From the IMG/VR virus record IMGVR_UViG_2740892230_000011: a stretch of DNA of 13,194 nt; one strand, given 5' to 3'. Below the pieces are notes generated by a model that was given only the letters and a program-made list of their open reading frames with translations, was not told the origin of the DNA and did not search any database. Made by a program: the position numbers and the translations under genes. Shown one piece after another: positions 992 through 12,683 of the stretch (position 1 is the stretch's first letter; every line of letters starts with the position of its first letter). This stretch comes from a virus. Its lineage: Duplodnaviria; Heunggongvirae; Uroviricota; Caudoviricetes.

Positions 992-1171
992 TGCAGATCA
1001 ATTAATATGATACCTGCGTCATAATTGATTATTTGACGTGGTTTGATGGCGTAGATGCACGTTGTGACATGTAGATGATAATTATTATCATTTTGCGGGT
1101 CCTTTCCGGCGATCCGACAGGTTACGGGGCGGCGACCTCGCGGGTTTTCGCTATTTATGAAAATTTTCCGG
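992..1171 (+). other. cos site: lambda right-end flank, cosN cohesive-end sequence (1127-1138), and first ~30 bp of the lambda left end
   Basis: Matches the lambda genome termini as I recall them: right end ...cctttccgg(c/t)gatccgacaggttacg, then the 12-nt cohesive end gggcggcgacct, then cgcgggttttcgctatttatgaaaattttccgg. A perfect 8-1-8 palindrome atgataat-t-attatcat lies at 1072-1088. Confidence 0.85.
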
Positions 1172-1487
1172 GATCCATGTCCGGTTTCTCTTCAAGTTAA
1201 CTATATGAAAAATATAAAAACAGGTCTTCTGTGAACCGGACATGAACAAAAAACAGACATGTAAACCGGACATGACCGGTTTTGTTGTGATTGTGAGGTG
1301 AGAGTTTTTGCGAGGTGAGGAGTGGCTACGCAGANNNNNNNNNNGCAAGTTAACTATATGAAAAATATAAAAACAGGCTGTCCGTGAACCGGACATGTGC
1401 AAAAAACGGACATGTAAACCGGACATGACCGGTTTTGTGCTGATTGTGAGGTAAGAGTTTTTGCGAGGTGAGGAGTGGCTACGCAGA
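1172..1487. repeat. Non-lambda insert: two diverged tandem units (1172-1334 and 1345-1487, split by an N-run) carrying a CCGGACATG repeat array and paired GAGGTGAG repeats
   Basis: Lambda identity ends after ...aaattttccgg at 1171. Motif copies: inverted catgtccgg 1176-1184; direct ccggacatg 1236-1244 and 1266-1274, with degenerate cagacatg 1254-1261; unit B direct copies 1389-1397, 1407-1414 (cggacatg), 1419-1427. Near-palindrome aaaccggacatgaccggttt around 1263-1282. No convincing ORF. Confidence 0.6.
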
Positions 1488-1497
1488 NNNNNNNNNN

Positions 1498-1611
1498 CCG
1501 TAACCTAATGTTTTTATTTAAAACACCCCCTGAAAAGAAAGGAAACGACAGGTGCTGAAAACGGGCTTTTTGGCCTTTGTCGTTTCCTTTCTCTGTTTTT
1601 GTCCGTGGAAT
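1498..1611 (+). promoter_or_regulatory. cosB-like terminase binding region, copy 1 (lambda-type R2 and R1 elements)
   Basis: ccgtaacctaatgtttttatttaaaacaccccctgaaaagaaaggaaacgacagg...cgtttcctttctctgtttttgtccgtggaat matches the lambda cosB region, including gaaaggaaacga (R2) and cgtttcctttct (R1). Bounded by N-runs on both sides. Confidence 0.7.
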
Positions 1612-1621
1612 NNNNNNNNNN

Positions 1622-2262
1622 CTGAAGTTGCCAGGCATTTAAGTCTGACCGATCGCCAGCTTCGCAGATTGCAGAAATTGCCGGGTGCCCCGATATCGAA
1701 TAAGCGAGGGCAACTGGATCTGGATGCCTGGCGCGATTTTTACATATCGTATCTGAGGAGAAGTAAAAACGATGTGCCTGATGGCGATAGCGAAGACGAC
1801 TATGAGGAGAAATTGCTTATTGCCAGATGGGAACTGACAGCAGAACAGGCTGTTACACAGCAGTTAAAAAATGAGGTGTCAAAAGGAAAACTTATTGACA
1901 CCGGGTTCTGTATTTTTGCCCTCAGTAAGCTGGCAATGGNNNNNNNNNNAGAAAAGTTACTCATTGCCAGATGGAAGTTGATCGAAGAACAGGCAATCGC
2001 CCAGCAATTAAAAAATCAGGCGTCCGAAGGAAAGCTTATTGACACCGGATTCTGTATTTTTGCCCTCAGTAAGCTGGCAATGGCGTTATCCAGTACGCTT
2101 GATTCCATCCCTTTATCCATGCAGCGACAGTTTCCTGATTTAACACCGCGCCATCTTGACCATCTGAAAACCCTTATTGCTAAGGGGGCAAATCAGTGTG
2201 CGCGGGCAGGGGATAAATTACCGGATTTACTCGATGAATATATCAGAGCAACAACTGAATAA
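1622..2262 (+). CDS. Terminase small subunit, divergent Nu1 homologue; start codon masked by N-run, internal N-run with diverged duplication
   Basis: C-terminal half aligns with lambda Nu1 (TGFCIFALSKLAMALSSTLDSIPLSMQRQFPDL vs ETAFCTFVLSRIAGEIASILDGLPLSVQRRFPEL; ending LLDEYIRATTE vs LLSEYIEQSG). N-terminal region (EVARHLSLTDRQLRRLQKLPG...) is not lambda-like. The track start at 1552 is cosB sequence read in frame and is spurious. True length is about 185-190 aa once the duplicated segment across 1940-1949 is removed. Confidence 0.8.
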
Positions 2263-3474
2263 TATGATGGCTGCCGTTTCGGTTGCGCTGCAGCCTCTGG
2301 TCAGGGTTGTACCAATGACGGCAGTTGAATGGGCTGATCAAAATTATTATCTGCCTAAAGAATCCTCATACGGTGAGGGCGAATGGAAAACGCTGCCATT
2401 CCAGATCGCCATTATGAACTGTATGGGTAACGACCAGGTTCGCACGGTTAACCTGATTAAATCTGCCCGTGTTGGTTATACAAAGATGTTGCTGGGGGTG
2501 GTCGGGTATTTTATTGAGCATAAATCCCGAAACAGTCTGCTTTTTCAGCCCACGGATTCTGCCGCTGAAGATTTTATGAAGTCTCACGTGGAGGCGACGA
2601 TTCGGAACGTGCCATGCCTGAAAGACCTTTCCCCATGGCTGGGTCGTAAACATCGTGACAATACTCTCACGCTGAAACGCTTTTCATCGGGCGTCGGTTT
2701 CTGGTGCCTGGGCGGCGCTGCCGCCAAAAACTACCGTGAAAAATCCGTGGACGTGGTCTGCTATGACGAACTTTCCTCGTTCGAGCCGGATGTCGAAAAA
2801 GAGGGCTCGCCAACCCTGCTGGGGGATAAGCGTATTGAGGGGTCGGTGTGGCCAAAATCCATTCGCGGCTCGACGCCTAAAATCAAAGGCTCCTGCCAGA
2901 TCGAAAAAGCCGCTAACGAGTCGGCACACTTCATGCGTTTTTATGTGCCCTGTCCGCACTGTGGGGAGGAGCAGTATCTGAAATTTGGCGATGAGTCCAC
3001 GCCTTTTGGGCTTAAATGGGAGAAGGACAGCCCTGAAAGTGTTTTCTACCTCTGTGAACATCATGGCTGCGTGATCCATCAGTCTGAACTGGACCAGAGC
3101 AACGGGCGGTGGATCTGTGAAAACACGGGCATGTGGACCCGTGACGGTCTGACGTTTTTCAGCGCTGCGGGTAATGAAATTCCGCCGCCGCGCTCCATCA
3201 CTTTCCATATCTGGACGGCGTACAGTCCGTTCACCANNNNNNNNNNCCGGGGTGATGAAATTCCGCCGCCGCGCTCCATCACGTTCCATATCTGGACGGC
3301 GTACAGTCCGTTCACCACCTGGGTACAGATTGTCTATGACTGGCTGGATGCACTGAAAGATCCCAACGGCCTGAAAACCTTTGTGAACACCACGCTGGGC
3401 GAGACCTGGGAAGAGGCTGTGGGCGAAAAACTCGATCACCAGATACTGATGGATAAGGTTGTGCGTTACACGGC
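2234..3474 (+). CDS. Terminase large subunit homologue (gpA-like), N-terminal ~410 codons; 3' end cut by N-run, internal N-run at 3237-3246
   Basis: Starts MNISEQQLNNMM... at ATG 2234, overlapping the small-subunit stop as in lambda Nu1/A. Colinear with lambda gpA (TAVEWADQNYYLPKES, FWCLGG, KNYREKSVDV, LGDKRIEGSVWPKSIRGSTPK, CPHCGEEQYLKFGD, FHIWTAYSPFTTWVQIV, FVNTTLGETWE) but clearly diverged, most strongly in the first ~35 residues. The track start at 2177 is an upstream extension. Confidence 0.85.
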
Positions 3475-3484
3475 NNNNNNNNNN

Positions 3485-3603
3485 TCATAACTTAATGTTT
3501 TTATTTAAAATACCCTCTGAAAAGAAAGGAAGCGACAGGTGCTGAAAGCGAGCTTTTTGGCCTCTGTCGTTTCCTTTCTCTGTTTTTGTCCGTGGAATGA
3601 ACA
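3485..3603 (+). promoter_or_regulatory. cosB (lambda-type) terminase binding region upstream of Nu1; cosN is absent on this side of the N-run
   Basis: tcataacttaatgtttttatttaaaataccctctgaaaagaaaggaagcgacagg... matches the lambda left end from about 35 bp past cosN. R2-like gaaaggaagcga at 3524-3535 and R1 cgtttcctttct at 3568-3579. Confidence 0.85.
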
Positions 3604-4123
3604 ATGGAAGTCAACAAAAAGCAGCTGGCTGACATTTTCGGTGCGAGTATCCGTACCATTCAGAACTGGCAGGAACAGGGAATGCCCGTTCTGCGAGGCG
3701 GTGGCAAGGGTAATGAGGTGCTTTATGACTCTGCCGCCGTCATAAAATGGTATGCCGAAAGGGATGCTGAAATTGAGAACGAAAAGCTGCGCCGGGAAGT
3801 TGAAGAACTGCGGCAGGCCAGCGAGACAGATCTCCAGCCAGGGACTATTGAGTACGAACGCCATCGACTTACGCGTGCGCAGGCCGACGCACAGGAACTG
3901 AAGAATGCCAGAGACTCCGCTGAAGTGGTGGAAACCGCATTCTGTACTTTCGTGTTGTCGCGGATCGCAGGTGAAATTGCCAGTATTCTCGACGGGCTCC
4001 CCCTGTCGGTGCAGCGGCGTTTTCCGGAACTGGAAAACCGACATGTTGATTTCCTGAAACGGGATATCATCAAAGCCATGAACAAAGCAGCCGCGCTGGA
4101 TGAACTGATACCGGGGTTGCTGA

Positions 4124-4149
<26 letters not shown>
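3604..4149 (+). CDS. nu1: Terminase small subunit Nu1 (181 aa)
   Basis: MEVNKKQLADIFGASIRTIQNWQEQGMPVLRGGGKGNEVLYDSAAVIKWYAERDAEIENEKLRRE... is essentially the lambda Nu1 sequence as I recall it; the 3' end overlaps the A start. Confidence 0.97.
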
Positions 4150-9547: not shown

Positions 9548-10822
9548 ATGTCGATGTACACAACCGCCCAGCTGCTGGCGGCAAATGAGCAGAAATTTAA
9601 GTTTGATCCGCTGTTTCTGCGTCTCTTTTTCCGTGAGAGCTATCCCTTCACCACGGAGAAAGTCTATCTCTCACAAATTCCTGGACTGGTAAACATGGCG
9701 CTGTACGTTTCGCCAATTGTTTCCGGTGAGGTTATCCGTTCCCGTGGCGGCTCCACCTCTGAATTTACGCCGGGATATGTCAAACCCAAGCATGAAGTGA
9801 ATCCGCAGATGACCCTGCGTCGCCTGCCGGNNNNNNNNNNTTATGTCAAGCCGAAGCATGAGGTGAATCCGCAGATGACCCTGCGTCGCCTGCCGGATGA
9901 AGATCCGCAGAATCTGGCGGACCCGGCTTACCGCCGCCGTCGCATCATCCTGCAGAACATGCGTGACGAAGAGCTGGCCATTGCTCAGGTCGAAGAGATG
10001 CAGGCAGTTTCTGCCGTGCTCAAGGGCAAATACACCATGACCGGTGAAGCCTTCGATCCGGTTGAGGTGGATATGGGCCGCAGTGCGACGAACAACATCA
10101 CGCAGTCCGGCGGCACGGAGTGGAGCAAGCGTGACAAGTCCACGTATGACCCGACCGACGATATCGAAGCCTACGCGCTGAACGCCAGCGGCGTGGTGAA
10201 TATCATCGTGTTTGATCCGAAAGGCTGGGCGCTGTTCCGTTCCTTCAAAGCCGTCAAGGAGAAGCTGGATACCCGTCGCGGCTCTAATTCCGAGCTGGAG
10301 ACAGCGGTAAAAGACCTGGGCGAAGCGGTGTCCTATAAGGGGATGTATGGCGATACGGCGATCGTCGTGTATTCCGGACAGTACGTGGAAAACGACGTCA
10401 AAAAGAACTTCCTGCCGGACAACACGATGNNNNNNNNNNGGGAGAAGCTGGATACCCGTCGCGGCTCTCATTCCGAACTGGAGACAGCGGTAAAAGACCT
10501 GGGCAAAGCGGTGTCTTATAAGGGAATGTATGGCGATGTGGCCATCGTCGTGTATTCCGGACAGTACGTGGAAAACGGCGTCAAAAAGAACTTCCTGCCG
10601 GACAACACGATGGTGCTGGGGAACACTCAGGCACGCGGTCTGCGCACCTATGGCTGCATTCAGGATGCGGACGCACAGCGCGAAGGTATTAACGCCTCTG
10701 CCCGCTACCCGAAAAACTGGGTGACCACCGGCGATCCGGCGCGTGAGTTCACCATGATTCAGTCAGCACCGCTGATGCTGCTGGCTGACCCTGATGCGTT
10801 CGTGTCCGTACAACTGGCGTAA
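9548..10822 (+). CDS. E: Major capsid protein E; length inflated by two N-runs with duplicated flanks
   Basis: MSMYTTAQLLAANEQKFKFDPLFLRLFFRESYPFTTEKVYLSQIPGLVNMALYVSPIVSGEV... through ...LLADPDAFVSVQLA matches lambda gpE. Segments YVKPKHEVNPQMTLRRLP and EKLDTRRGS...FLPDNTM each appear twice across N-runs 9831-9840 and 10430-10439; removing them gives about 341 aa. Confidence 0.93.
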   Translation: MSMYTTAQLLAANEQKFKFDPLFLRLFFRESYPFTTEKVYLSQIPGLVNMALYVSPIVSGEVIRSRGGSTSEFTPGYVKPKHEVNPQMTLRRLPXXXXYVKPKHEVNPQMTLRRLPDEDPQNLADPAYRRRRIILQNMRDEELAIAQVEEMQAVSAVLKGKYTMTGEAFDPVEVDMGRSATNNITQSGGTEWSKRDKSTYDPTDDIEAYALNASGVVNIIVFDPKGWALFRSFKAVKEKLDTRRGSNSELETAVKDLGEAVSYKGMYGDTAIVVYSGQYVENDVKKNFLPDNTMXXXXEKLDTRRGSHSELETAVKDLGKAVSYKGMYGDVAIVVYSGQYVENGVKKNFLPDNTMVLGNTQARGLRTYGCIQDADAQREGINASARYPKNWVTTGDPAREFTMIQSAPLMLLADPDAFVSVQLA

Positions 10823-10942: not shown

Positions 10943-10952
10943 NNNNNNNNNN

Positions 10953-11086: not shown

Positions 11087-11116
11087 NNNNNNNNNNTTCT
11101 CTCTGTGGAGGAGTCT

Positions 11117-11650
11117 ATGACGAAAGATGAACTGATTGCCCGTCTTCAGGTGCTGGGTGAGCAACTGAACCGTGATGTCAGCCTGACGGGGACGAAAGAA
11201 GAACTGGTGCTCCGTGTGGCAGAGCTGGAAGAGGAGCTTGATGACACGGATGACGCTGCCGGTCAGGACACATCTGTCAGCCCGGAAAATGCGCTGACCG
11301 GACATGAAAATGAGGTGGTATCAGCACAGACGGATACCGTGACTGATACGGCTGCTCTGGTCACGGTTGTGGCACTGGTGACGCTGCATACCGATGCACT
11401 TCACGCCACGCGGGATGAACCTGTGGCATTTGTGCTGCCGGGAACGGCGTTTCNNNNNNNNNNGCAGCCGGATACCGTGATTGATACGGCTGCTCTGGTC
11501 ACGGTCGTGGCACTGGTGACGCTGCATACTGATGCACTTCACGCCACGCGGGATGAGCCTGTGGCATTTGTGCTGCCGGGAACGGCGTTTCGTGTCTCTG
11601 CCGGTGTGGCAGCCGAAATGACAGAACATGGCCTGGCCAGAATGCAATAA
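11117..11650 (+). CDS. Fi: DNA packaging protein FI; length inflated by one N-run with duplicated flanks
   Basis: ATG at 11117 preceded by ggagga; MTKDELIARLQVLGEQLNRDVSLTGTKEELVLRVAELEEELDD... ending ...AEMTEHGLARMQ matches lambda gpFI. An ~40-aa segment is duplicated across N-run 11454-11463; true length about 132 aa. Confidence 0.9.
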   Translation: MTKDELIARLQVLGEQLNRDVSLTGTKEELVLRVAELEEELDDTDDAAGQDTSVSPENALTGHENEVVSAQTDTVTDTAALVTVVALVTLHTDALHATRDEPVAFVLPGTAFXXXXQPDTVIDTAALVTVVALVTLHTDALHATRDEPVAFVLPGTAFRVSAGVAAEMTEHGLARMQ

Positions 11651-12026: not shown

Positions 12027-12683
12027 ATGGCCATAAAAGGTCTTGAGCAGGCCGTTGAAAACCTCAGCCGTATCAGCAAAACGGCGGTGCCTGGTGCCGC
12101 CGCAATGGCCATTAACCGCGTTGCGTCATCCGCGATATCGCAGTCTGCGTCACAGGTTGNNNNNNNNNNCGGTGCGTCAGCAATGGCCATTAACCGCGTT
12201 GCTTCATCCGCGATATCGCAGTCTGCGTCACAGGTTGCCCGTGAGACAAAGGTACGCCGGAAACTGGTAAAGGAAAGGGCCAGGCTGAAAAGGGCCACGG
12301 TCAAAAATCCGCAGGCCAGAATCAGGGTTAACCGGGGGGATTTGCCCGTAATCAAGCTGGGTAACGCGCGGGTTGTCCTTTCCCGCCGCAGACGTCGTAA
12401 AAAGGGGCAGCGTTCATCCCTGAAAGGTGGCGGCAGCGTGCTTGTGGTGGGAAACCGTCGTATTCCCGGCGCGTTTATTCAGCAACTGAAAAATGGCCGG
12501 TGGCATGTCATGCAGCGTGTGGCCGGGAAAAACCGTTACCCCATTGATGTGGTGAAAATCCCGATGGCGGCCCCACTGAAACAGGCATTTGATGAGAATG
12601 TTGACCGTATCCGGCGTGAACGCCTGCCTAAAGAACTGGCATACGCGCTGAAACAACAACTGAGGATTGCAATAAAACGATGA
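12027..12683 (+). CDS. Z: Tail completion protein Z; length inflated by one N-run with duplicated flanks
   Basis: MAIKGLEQAVENLSRISKTAVPGAAAMAINRVASSAISQSASQVARETKVRRKLVKERARLKR... matches lambda gpZ. Segment AMAINRVASSAISQSASQV is duplicated across N-run 12160-12169; true length about 192 aa. SD agggggg upstream. Confidence 0.93.
   Translation: MAIKGLEQAVENLSRISKTAVPGAAAMAINRVASSAISQSASQVXXXXGASAMAINRVASSAISQSASQVARETKVRRKLVKERARLKRATVKNPQARIRVNRGDLPVIKLGNARVVLSRRRRRKKGQRSSLKGGGSVLVVGNRRIPGAFIQQLKNGRWHVMQRVAGKNRYPIDVVKIPMAAPLKQAFDENVDRIRRERLPKELAYALKQQLRIAIKR

Follow-up and report, generated by a model that had tools for sequence, protein, structure and literature searches.

A candidate cosB matched to a small terminase subunit with a diverged DNA-binding domain at a lambda-like cos site of Escherichia coli prophages

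The cosN–terS locus and its repeat array

The window analyzed here is a stretch of 13,194 nucleotides of viral DNA (Caudoviricetes; IMG/VR record IMGVR_UViG_2740892230_000011) that carries a lambda-like cos site followed by terS, the gene for the small terminase subunit (TerS). Positions 1172–1321, which hold an array of short repeats, are read here as the cosB of this site, matched to a TerS whose DNA-binding domain has diverged from that of lambda Nu1; on the strength of sequence comparison, we put the probability of this reading at about 80%. In lambda numbering, with bp 1 at window position 1127, identity to lambda runs from 1127 to ...aaattttccgg at 1171 (lambda bp 45), the end point given in the initial annotation of this DNA. 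The repeat copies listed there were likewise recovered: CATGTCCGG at 1176–1184, CCGGACATG at 1236 and 1266, a degenerate CAGACATG at 1254, and GAGGTGAG at 1295 and 1312. When the 163 bp after cosN were shuffled 20,000 times with dinucleotides preserved, a 9-mer present at least three times on either strand arose in 16 shuffles, homopolymer runs included, and the repeat thus exceeds chance. The unit can be extended to 11–12 bp, CATGTCCGGTT(T). Finished genomes and phage PhiR12_1 have cosN, then the 163 bp and then the terS start, with nothing else between. The features of the locus are as follows, with offsets counted from the site equivalent to lambda R3.

1127–1138, plus strand: cosN cohesive-end sequence GGGCGGCGACCT, identical to lambda bp 1–12; cleavage predicted from the sequence
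1176–1187 (bp 50–61), plus strand: R3-equivalent CATGTCCGGTTT, offset 0; contains the core TCCGGTT of the family described below
1188–1232, no strand: AT-rich spacer (73% A+T) between the R3- and R2-equivalents
1198–1210, minus strand: putative integration host factor (IHF) site TTTCATATAGTTA, two mismatches to WATCAANNNNTTR
1233–1244 (bp 107–118), minus strand: R2-equivalent GAACCGGACATG, inverted, offset +58 from the R3-equivalent, center to center
1250–1261 (bp 124–135), minus strand: degenerate middle copy AAAACAGACATG, inverted, offset +75
1263–1281, no strand: composite palindromic site AAACCGGACATGACCGGTT, candidate R1-equivalent
1263–1274 (bp 137–148), minus strand: exact inverted copy AAACCGGACATG within the composite site, offset +88
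1271–1281 (bp 145–155), plus strand: R3-orientation copy CATGACCGGTT overlapping the inverted copy, 10/11, offset +95
1295–1302, plus strand: first GAGGTGAG copy, variable; corresponds to window 1448–1455 in a second allele
1312–1324, plus strand: Shine-Dalgarno GAGGTGAG (1312–1319) and GTG start of terS (1322–1324), start at bp 196
1322–2262, plus strand: terS, 169 aa in finished genomes, here split by gaps into 1322–1334, 1622–1939 and 2084–2262

The cosN and its flanking 45 bp are identical to those of lambda. The first site (bp 50–61) occupies the same position as R3 of lambda (bp 50–65) and R3 of N15 (bp 48–60) (PMC9026076), and an exact inverted copy of its 11-mer lies at +58, compared with 56–57 in lambda, across a spacer of 73% A+T (74% in lambda). 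The initial annotation had taken lambda cosB to consist of an inverted R3 followed by direct R2 and R1 sites; R2 is in fact oriented opposite to both R3 and R1 (PMC9026076). The lambda layout, as we computed it, places R3 at bp 53–64, R2 inverted at +57, R1 in the R3 orientation at +102 and the Nu1 start at bp 191. The correspondence is therefore not the previously proposed series of one inverted site, an AT-rich spacer and direct sites; it is 0, +58 inverted and +95 in the original orientation, versus 0, +57 and +102 in lambda, with terS starting at bp 196 rather than 191. The distances between neighboring copies, reported as 18 and 12 bp and measured here as 17 and 13 bp, had been counted as a weakness of the array, but the functionally comparable distance separates the R3-position site from its inverted partner and, at 58 bp, is lambda-like. 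The R1-like reading of the composite site is ambiguous, because the copy at +95 overlaps the exact inverted copy at +88 to form a palindrome. No copy with two or fewer mismatches was found beyond +95 in the E. coli element.

The terS gene, previously placed from 1622 onward, starts at the GTG at 1322, which is the start of the RefSeq coding sequence WP_000235436.1 in a finished O157:H7 genome (locus L001) and has an in-frame TGA immediately upstream. Both of the paired GAGGTGAG repeats noted earlier are present; the second is the ribosome-binding site of terS, and the first is variable and, among natural alleles, dispensable. The large terminase subunit (TerL), the head-tail joining protein (W) and the portal protein are encoded downstream. 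A minus-strand open reading frame over window 1151–1426 was rejected because it spans an N-run, and a 40-aa "hypothetical protein" over cosB in PhiR12_1 was rejected as being supported by annotation only. The annotated or mechanically called open reading frames over cosB at L002 3077–3199 and window 1151–1426, both on the minus strand, are probably spurious.

TerS matches Pfam Phage_Nu1 (PF07471) with 67.9 bits against a cutoff of 30, over residues 49–150 only (profile positions 62–163), and BLASTP gives 46% identity to lambda Nu1 over residues 73–164, the oligomerization and TerL-binding half. The first 70 residues returned no Pfam family, BLAST or solved-structure (PDB) sequence match. Homology of this DNA-binding domain to that of Nu1 is detectable by profile comparison only: hhalign aligned the profile of the family with the Nu1 domain at a probability of 87.8% (E 3.3e-6), placing DRQLRRLQ on the Nu1 recognition helix (IRTIQNWQ) and the next loop on the wing, and gave no alignment with the N15 domain. 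A single-sequence AlphaFold model has a predicted local distance difference test score (pLDDT) of ~80 over residues 1–50 and a strand-helix-helix-wing-helix order compatible with Nu1-type topology. The domain is thus probably a remote Nu1 homologue and not an unrelated fold.

Conservation in E. coli and relatives in other genera

For E. coli, aligned columns were scored as variable across 143 loci encoding a TerS of this type, representing 59 distinct alleles. The initial annotation had suggested looking in other prophages with the same small-subunit allele, and there the array lies upstream of TerS in 143/143 loci. The lambda R2 block was found in none of them. Among the 59 alleles the variable columns are distributed as follows.

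R3-equivalent: 0/12
First inverted copy (R2-equivalent): 2/12
Third copy: 3/12, with the CCGGACAT core invariant
Middle copy: 7/12, no better than the spacer
Rest of the region: 27/92

The three core copies thus have 5/36 variable columns, against 27/92 elsewhere (Mann-Whitney p=0.038; Fisher p=0.075). The middle copy, counted as part of the array in the initial annotation, reads TAGACACT, TGGGCATG or TGTACAAA in other alleles; it is not conserved and is probably not a constrained site. The first GAGGTGAG varies (GAAGTGAG, GAGGTAAG), as alleles u1 and u19 and window 1448–1455 show, and is lost to a deletion in u19; since it is both variable and deleted in one natural allele it is probably not functional. 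Alleles u21, u22, u46 and u52 form a lineage in which the third copy keeps its core and is followed by other, longer sequence (CCGGACATATGCGTGCG...).

The 163-bp segment is present in 1,158 of 5,426 complete E. coli genomes (about a fifth), with a median of 2 and up to 4 copies in each. Hosts include O157, O26, O103, O111 and O145 strains, and lambda-type modules coexist with the cassette. Among 50,697 phage records the segment was found only in five PhiR12 phages, all complete genomes; these phages were grown on K-12 or E. coli C, which indicates that the cassette works in viable phage. Only four related loci were found in species-representative genomes, none of this type with an intact upstream region, and a word-indexed protein search returned almost exclusively fragments of the same TerS allele. 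In loci L004 and L005 (1400–2000), from a decayed prophage in Shigella flexneri and E. coli, a terS with the same C-terminal type is cut at about residue 68 by an insertion sequence, and a transposase open reading frame ends just upstream.

Relatives of the DNA-binding domain were found by an exhaustive HMMER search and tblastn in Aeromonas, Pseudomonas, enteric and metagenomic phages. They share the N-terminal domain MATQxEVAxHLxLxDRQ...PGxP...RG..D.D..R..YI.YLR at 44–71% identity; some have a Nu1-type C-terminal half and some have no Pfam match there. Evidently the domain has been paired with two or more TerL-binding halves that are unrelated to each other. The Pfam-less group comprises P0042, P0044, P0045, P0048, P0050 and P0053. 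P0041 and P0051, which matched in multiple stretches, were discarded as low-complexity repeat translations, and P0028 gave no upstream sequence because its contig begins at the gene. For 35 non-redundant family members from viral contigs, the 100 nt upstream of terS were searched for TCCGGTT, which is present in 32/35 relatives and in 0/309 background windows. This recurrence across genera provides the strongest support for the predicted recognition site.

An inverted copy of the 11-mer with one mismatch or fewer accompanies the site in 13 of the 32, and in 12 of these 13 it lies at 198–204 bp, the R3/rR2 spacing of N15 (PMC4669245). The record of phage phiARM81ld begins with GGGCGTTAGACC, which resembles the lambda cohesive-end sequence, and has CATTTCCGGTTCCGGTT at bp 52–68 and a terS start at bp 79; within the gene, some 200 bp downstream, is AACCGGAAATG. 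The same pattern recurs in phages 705R4 and LPPA33, with TATTTCCGG... and CGTTTCCGG.... Many relatives (phiARM81ld, LPPA33 and others) thus resemble N15 in having one site closely upstream of terS and an inverted copy 198–204 bp away inside the gene. The simple N15 cosB, a single R3 and an inverted rR2 about 200 bp inside terS with no IHF site, R2 or R1, is not the form of the E. coli element. A complex cosB is found in relatives L258, L270, L272 and L008, and in L258, L270 and L272 the R3-type site and its inverted partner are 57–58 bp apart. The E. coli element, L258 and L270 share this complex lambda-style arrangement with the Monarch group (Feiss et al. 2015, PMC4669245). Where the E. coli element has its weaker IHF match, the homologous position in L270, L272 and L008 holds the consensus without mismatch, AATCAATTGGTTA.

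The first four bases at the 5' end of the site vary among relatives (CATG, CATT, CGTT, CGCT, CACT), and so do the wing and the C-terminal end of the recognition helix. This variation fits the docking orientation proposed for lambda but yielded no recognition code. The 333-nt upstream stretch of L258 (IMGVR_UViG_2806310672_000003) has, at about 215–316, the sites CATTTCCGGTT in the clean lambda-style order of R3, AT-rich spacer, inverted R2 and direct R1, the last in the R3 orientation, and would make a good model system for the family. Locus L008 (1810–2320) is a diverged, decaying relative in which the cohesive-end sequence is altered to GGGTGACGACTT, R3 reads CATTTCCGGTTT and its partner is a degenerate ATGGAAATA; its terS has an internal deletion and a premature stop, and transposase genes adjoin it.

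Two of the four loci from species-representative genomes served as a positive control. L006 and L007 were fetched by TerS's C-terminal half, and they have a different N-terminal domain and a different repeat, GGTTGTTGT, which starts at bp 51 (direct), 110 (inverted) and 188 (direct) alongside an IHF-like site. In N15's own sequence GGTTGTTGT is R3 and the domain is that of N15 TerS, which identifies L006 and L007 as N15-specificity prophages with the complex cosB of the Monarch group (PMC4669245). The repeat-geometry approach therefore recovered a published cosB without prior knowledge of it. The two loci, L006 1640–1900 and L007 1690–1950, belong to prophages of E. albertii and Escherichia sp. 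Neither the R site (GGTTGTTGTTT) nor the DNA-binding domain (MAVLLNKSDMASS...) of the N15/Monarch type is related to its counterpart in the type described here.

Proposed recognition by the divergent TerS and competing explanations

The array is predicted to be the recognition site of the divergent TerS, a reading strongly supported by its presence in every locus encoding this TerS, by the TCCGGTT core in diverged relatives and by the lambda-like geometry. The initial annotation had proposed the same role, and this part of its proposal has strong comparative backing; its framing, in which the array replaced only R3 between cosN and cosB and lambda R sites remained downstream, proved wrong. The array appears to take the place of cosB as a whole and not of R3 alone, with the DNA-binding domain of TerS exchanged along with it.

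In a mechanism analogous to that of lambda, two TerS winged helix-turn-helix domains, as a dimer, would bind the R3-equivalent CATGTCCGGTT (bp 50–60) and its inverted partner 58 bp away, and a bend in the AT-rich spacer, either IHF-assisted or intrinsic, would bring the two sites together. Bound TerS would in turn anchor TerL so that it nicks cosN, which is unchanged. The palindromic composite at 1263–1281 may serve as an accessory R1-like site, with the middle degenerate copy and the first GAGGTGAG expected to be unconstrained. On this model cosB and the TerS N-terminal domain would be swapped as a single cassette that leaves cosQ, cosN and TerS's TerL-binding half lambda-like, and cassette exchange would give co-resident lambdoid prophages differing packaging specificities.

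Several observations weigh against this interpretation. The candidate IHF site matches 11/13 consensus positions, with 2 of the 9 specified positions mismatched (two mismatches, versus one in lambda), and such matches are common in AT-rich DNA. The additional inverted copies at +75 (degenerate) and +88 have no counterpart in lambda. Footprint statistics within E. coli are modest, because the whole region is conserved, and allele u35, in which 30 bp are missing from between the first inverted copy and the third, implies that not all copies are needed. The match of the single-sequence TerS model to winged-helix proteins in Foldseek was not significant (best E 0.12); the list consisted mostly of MerR-type winged-helix proteins and also included 6hn7_B and 6hlk, none of them significant. 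Finally, the site CATGTCCGGTT shares 7/11 positions with lambda CGTTTCCGTTC, so that cross-recognition by a lambda-type TerS is possible, as between N15 and lambda.

The gp1 protein of phage 21 aligns readily with Nu1 across the DNA-binding domain, and the R sites of 21 differ from those of lambda at a few positions; the type described here is far more diverged. Phage 21 is a documented parallel, in that cosQ and cosN are as in lambda while cosB and the TerS recognition helix differ, and it has a separate packaging specificity (PMC4669245). PICIs (phage-inducible chromosomal islands) offer another, since their cos sites set a different cosB beside a lambda-like cosN, recognized by an Rpp-TerS heterodimer (PMC6739421, PMC9026076); EcCICFT073, for example, has lambda-like cosQ and cosN and a wholly different cosB, after which comes a gene encoding a winged-helix protein.

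The PICI parallel raises the alternative that the repeats are operators for a DNA-binding protein other than TerS, such as a phage regulator or a satellite Rpp-like hijacker, and chains of 6hlk and 6hn7, present among fold hits that were not significant, point the same way. We consider this very improbable. The PICI reading fails because the gene here codes for a whole TerS with a Nu1-type TerL-binding half and stands in a full phage head-gene operon, followed by TerL, W and portal genes, whereas a PICI cos/rpp module has an rpp gene of 135–153 aa that lacks a TerL-binding domain and belongs to a satellite without head genes. No sequence similarity to the Rpp chains in the PDB was found, and the motif co-varies with the TerS DNA-binding-domain family across genera. 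A role at the RNA level, as a stem-loop, terminator or translational control of terS in the late transcript, is only slightly more credible. In the predicted minimum-free-energy fold (z = -2.0) the first inverted copy does pair with the R3-equivalent, weak terminator-like hairpins occur at two places, the R3-equivalent and the third copy, and the four D1 variants are all transitions that would keep G-U pairs; however, 8/200 shuffles fold equally well, no Rfam family reaches threshold, and the D1 pattern is not significant, with a chance probability of ~0.12 by hand calculation from the D1 base composition. Moreover, the second CCGG hairpin arm is lost in four alleles that retain the CCGGACAT core, the partner in simple-cosB relatives lies about 200 bp away within the coding region (cf. 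N15 rR2), and the position conserved across lambda, N15 and this type is relative to cosN and not to terS. An origin of the insert as the end of an insertion sequence or mobile element, raised in the initial annotation, was excluded, as a constant segment separates cosN from terS in every locus and no transposase is present, unlike the true insertion-sequence disruption of the gene in L004 and L005.

That collapsed or chimeric contigs merely mimic the repeats is suggested by the window itself, a scaffold of overlapping alternative contigs with 10-N gaps in which a second repeat unit and a lambda-type block are indeed artefactual. The core 163 bp is nevertheless 100% identical and uninterrupted in hundreds of finished genomes and is present in the complete E. 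coli and PhiR12 genomes counted above, so that the artefact explanation is refuted for the core array, where its likelihood is close to nil, and holds only for 1345–1487 and 1498–1611. The alternative with the most to be said for it accepts the array as cosB and denies it a separate specificity, with lambda-type and this-type terminases cross-packaging through a shared TTCCG core. The positions shared with lambda R3 rise from 7/11 to 9/11 in Pseudomonas-type relatives, the domain is probably a remote homologue of Nu1, and N15 packages lambda DNA despite a divergent system (PMC4669245). Against this, discrimination between lambda and 21 exceeds 1,000-fold on helix and site differences that are far smaller (PMC4669245), the recognition helix DRQLRRLQ differs from IRTIQNWQ of Nu1 at most positions, and both types coexist in single genomes, the source of the window included. 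On balance we regard this alternative as unlikely, though less so than the others.

Only three packaging specificities are documented among lambda-like phages, those of lambda, 21 and N15 (PMC4669245). We lean, somewhat cautiously, toward the array and its TerS representing a fourth, in which a TerS domain family (MATQxEVAxHLxLxDRQ...) would read YRYKTCCGGTT in simple (R3 + rR2) and complex (R3-I1-R2-R1) cosB sites across Enterobacteria, Aeromonas and Pseudomonas, and would insulate co-resident lambdoid prophages with identical cosN in pathogenic E. coli. Feiss et al. argued that such diversity should be advantageous where several such prophages occupy one cell (PMC4669245). The literature open to searching yielded no description of the site or the domain family: searches with the 9-mer and TTCCGGTTCCGG gave unrelated papers (p53 sites, primers), those on WP_000235436.1 or PhiR12 gave nothing, and those on cosB with Shiga or O157 gave noise only. 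The specificity looks undescribed yet conventional; the architecture and proposed mechanism are of a known kind, unsurprising to a specialist, and the cassette is common and probably biologically relevant in multi-prophage pathogenic E. coli. If distinct, it would bear on cross-packaging and mobilization of prophages and satellites in Shiga-toxin-producing strains, supply a natural, highly diverged test case for site reading by winged-helix TerS proteins, and provide a defined motif for annotating cos sites across a wide phage family.

Scaffold structure of the window

The window contains 13 gaps, each of exactly 10 N (982–991, 1335–1344, 1488–1497, 1612–1621, 1940–1949, 3237–3246, 3475–3484, 9831–9840, 10430–10439, 10943–10952, 11087–11096, 11454–11463 and 12160–12169). 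Where checked, the pieces flanking a gap are near-duplicates, that is, overlapping alternative alleles from different prophage copies. By BLAST against the finished O157:H7 genome (L001), window 992–1334 corresponds to L001 2821–3163 (99.4%) and 1622–1939 to L001 3164–3481 (99.7%), its direct continuation, and in finished genomes 1334 is joined straight to 1622. The piece at 1345–1487 covers L001 3022–3163, already contained in 992–1334, a second time (93.7%), and 1950–3236 covers L001 again from 3352. The pieces 1345–1487, 1498–1611 and 1950–2083 within the terS span are alternative-allele contigs put in by the scaffolder. The features affected are the following.

1345–1487, plus strand: alternative allele of 1193–1334 from another prophage copy, ~6–8% divergent; a scaffold artefact and not a tandem repeat
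1498–1611, plus strand: lambda-type cosB fragment (I1-R2-R1), a 114-bp contig from a different, lambda-type prophage, misplaced by the scaffold
3485–4149, plus strand: second packaging module, with a lambda-type cosB (I1-R2-R1, 3485–3603) and Nu1 (3604–4149)

The initial annotation had described the unit as repeated across the N-run with ~5% divergence and had placed lambda-type R2 and R1 sites downstream at 1498–1611, counting the latter as a weakness of the array. Neither arrangement survives. The 1345–1487 piece has three or fewer mismatches to alleles in L013, L061, L065 and L099, and 0/170 related loci have two units of the array. The 1498–1611 contig is 100% identical to L172 901–1014, and in L172, which is finished, cosN and lambda R3 precede it and a lambda-type Nu1 gene follows, so that in real genomes it is part of a lambda-type cos/Nu1 module of its own. 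The absence of two-unit loci, and of any lambda R2 block in loci encoding this TerS, marks both the second unit and the downstream R2/R1 block as assembly artefacts, which arise from the presence of several lambdoid prophages in the source genome.

The Nu1 at 3604–4149 is essentially identical to that of lambda, with gpA next, and 3485–4149 represents another allele of the 1498–1611 stretch joined to lambda Nu1; the source genome thus has both types of cosB behind the same cosN. Any apparent tandem repeat or hybrid gene across a gap in the window should be distrusted. The practical warning is a general one: when 10-N gaps join short contigs from genomes with several prophages, the result can look like a tandem repeat or a hybrid site. 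Upstream of cosN, 837–981 and 992–1128 are two alleles of the same region, 88–95% identical and placed in series by the scaffold, the first of which stops exactly at the cohesive-end boundary (...aggttacggg).

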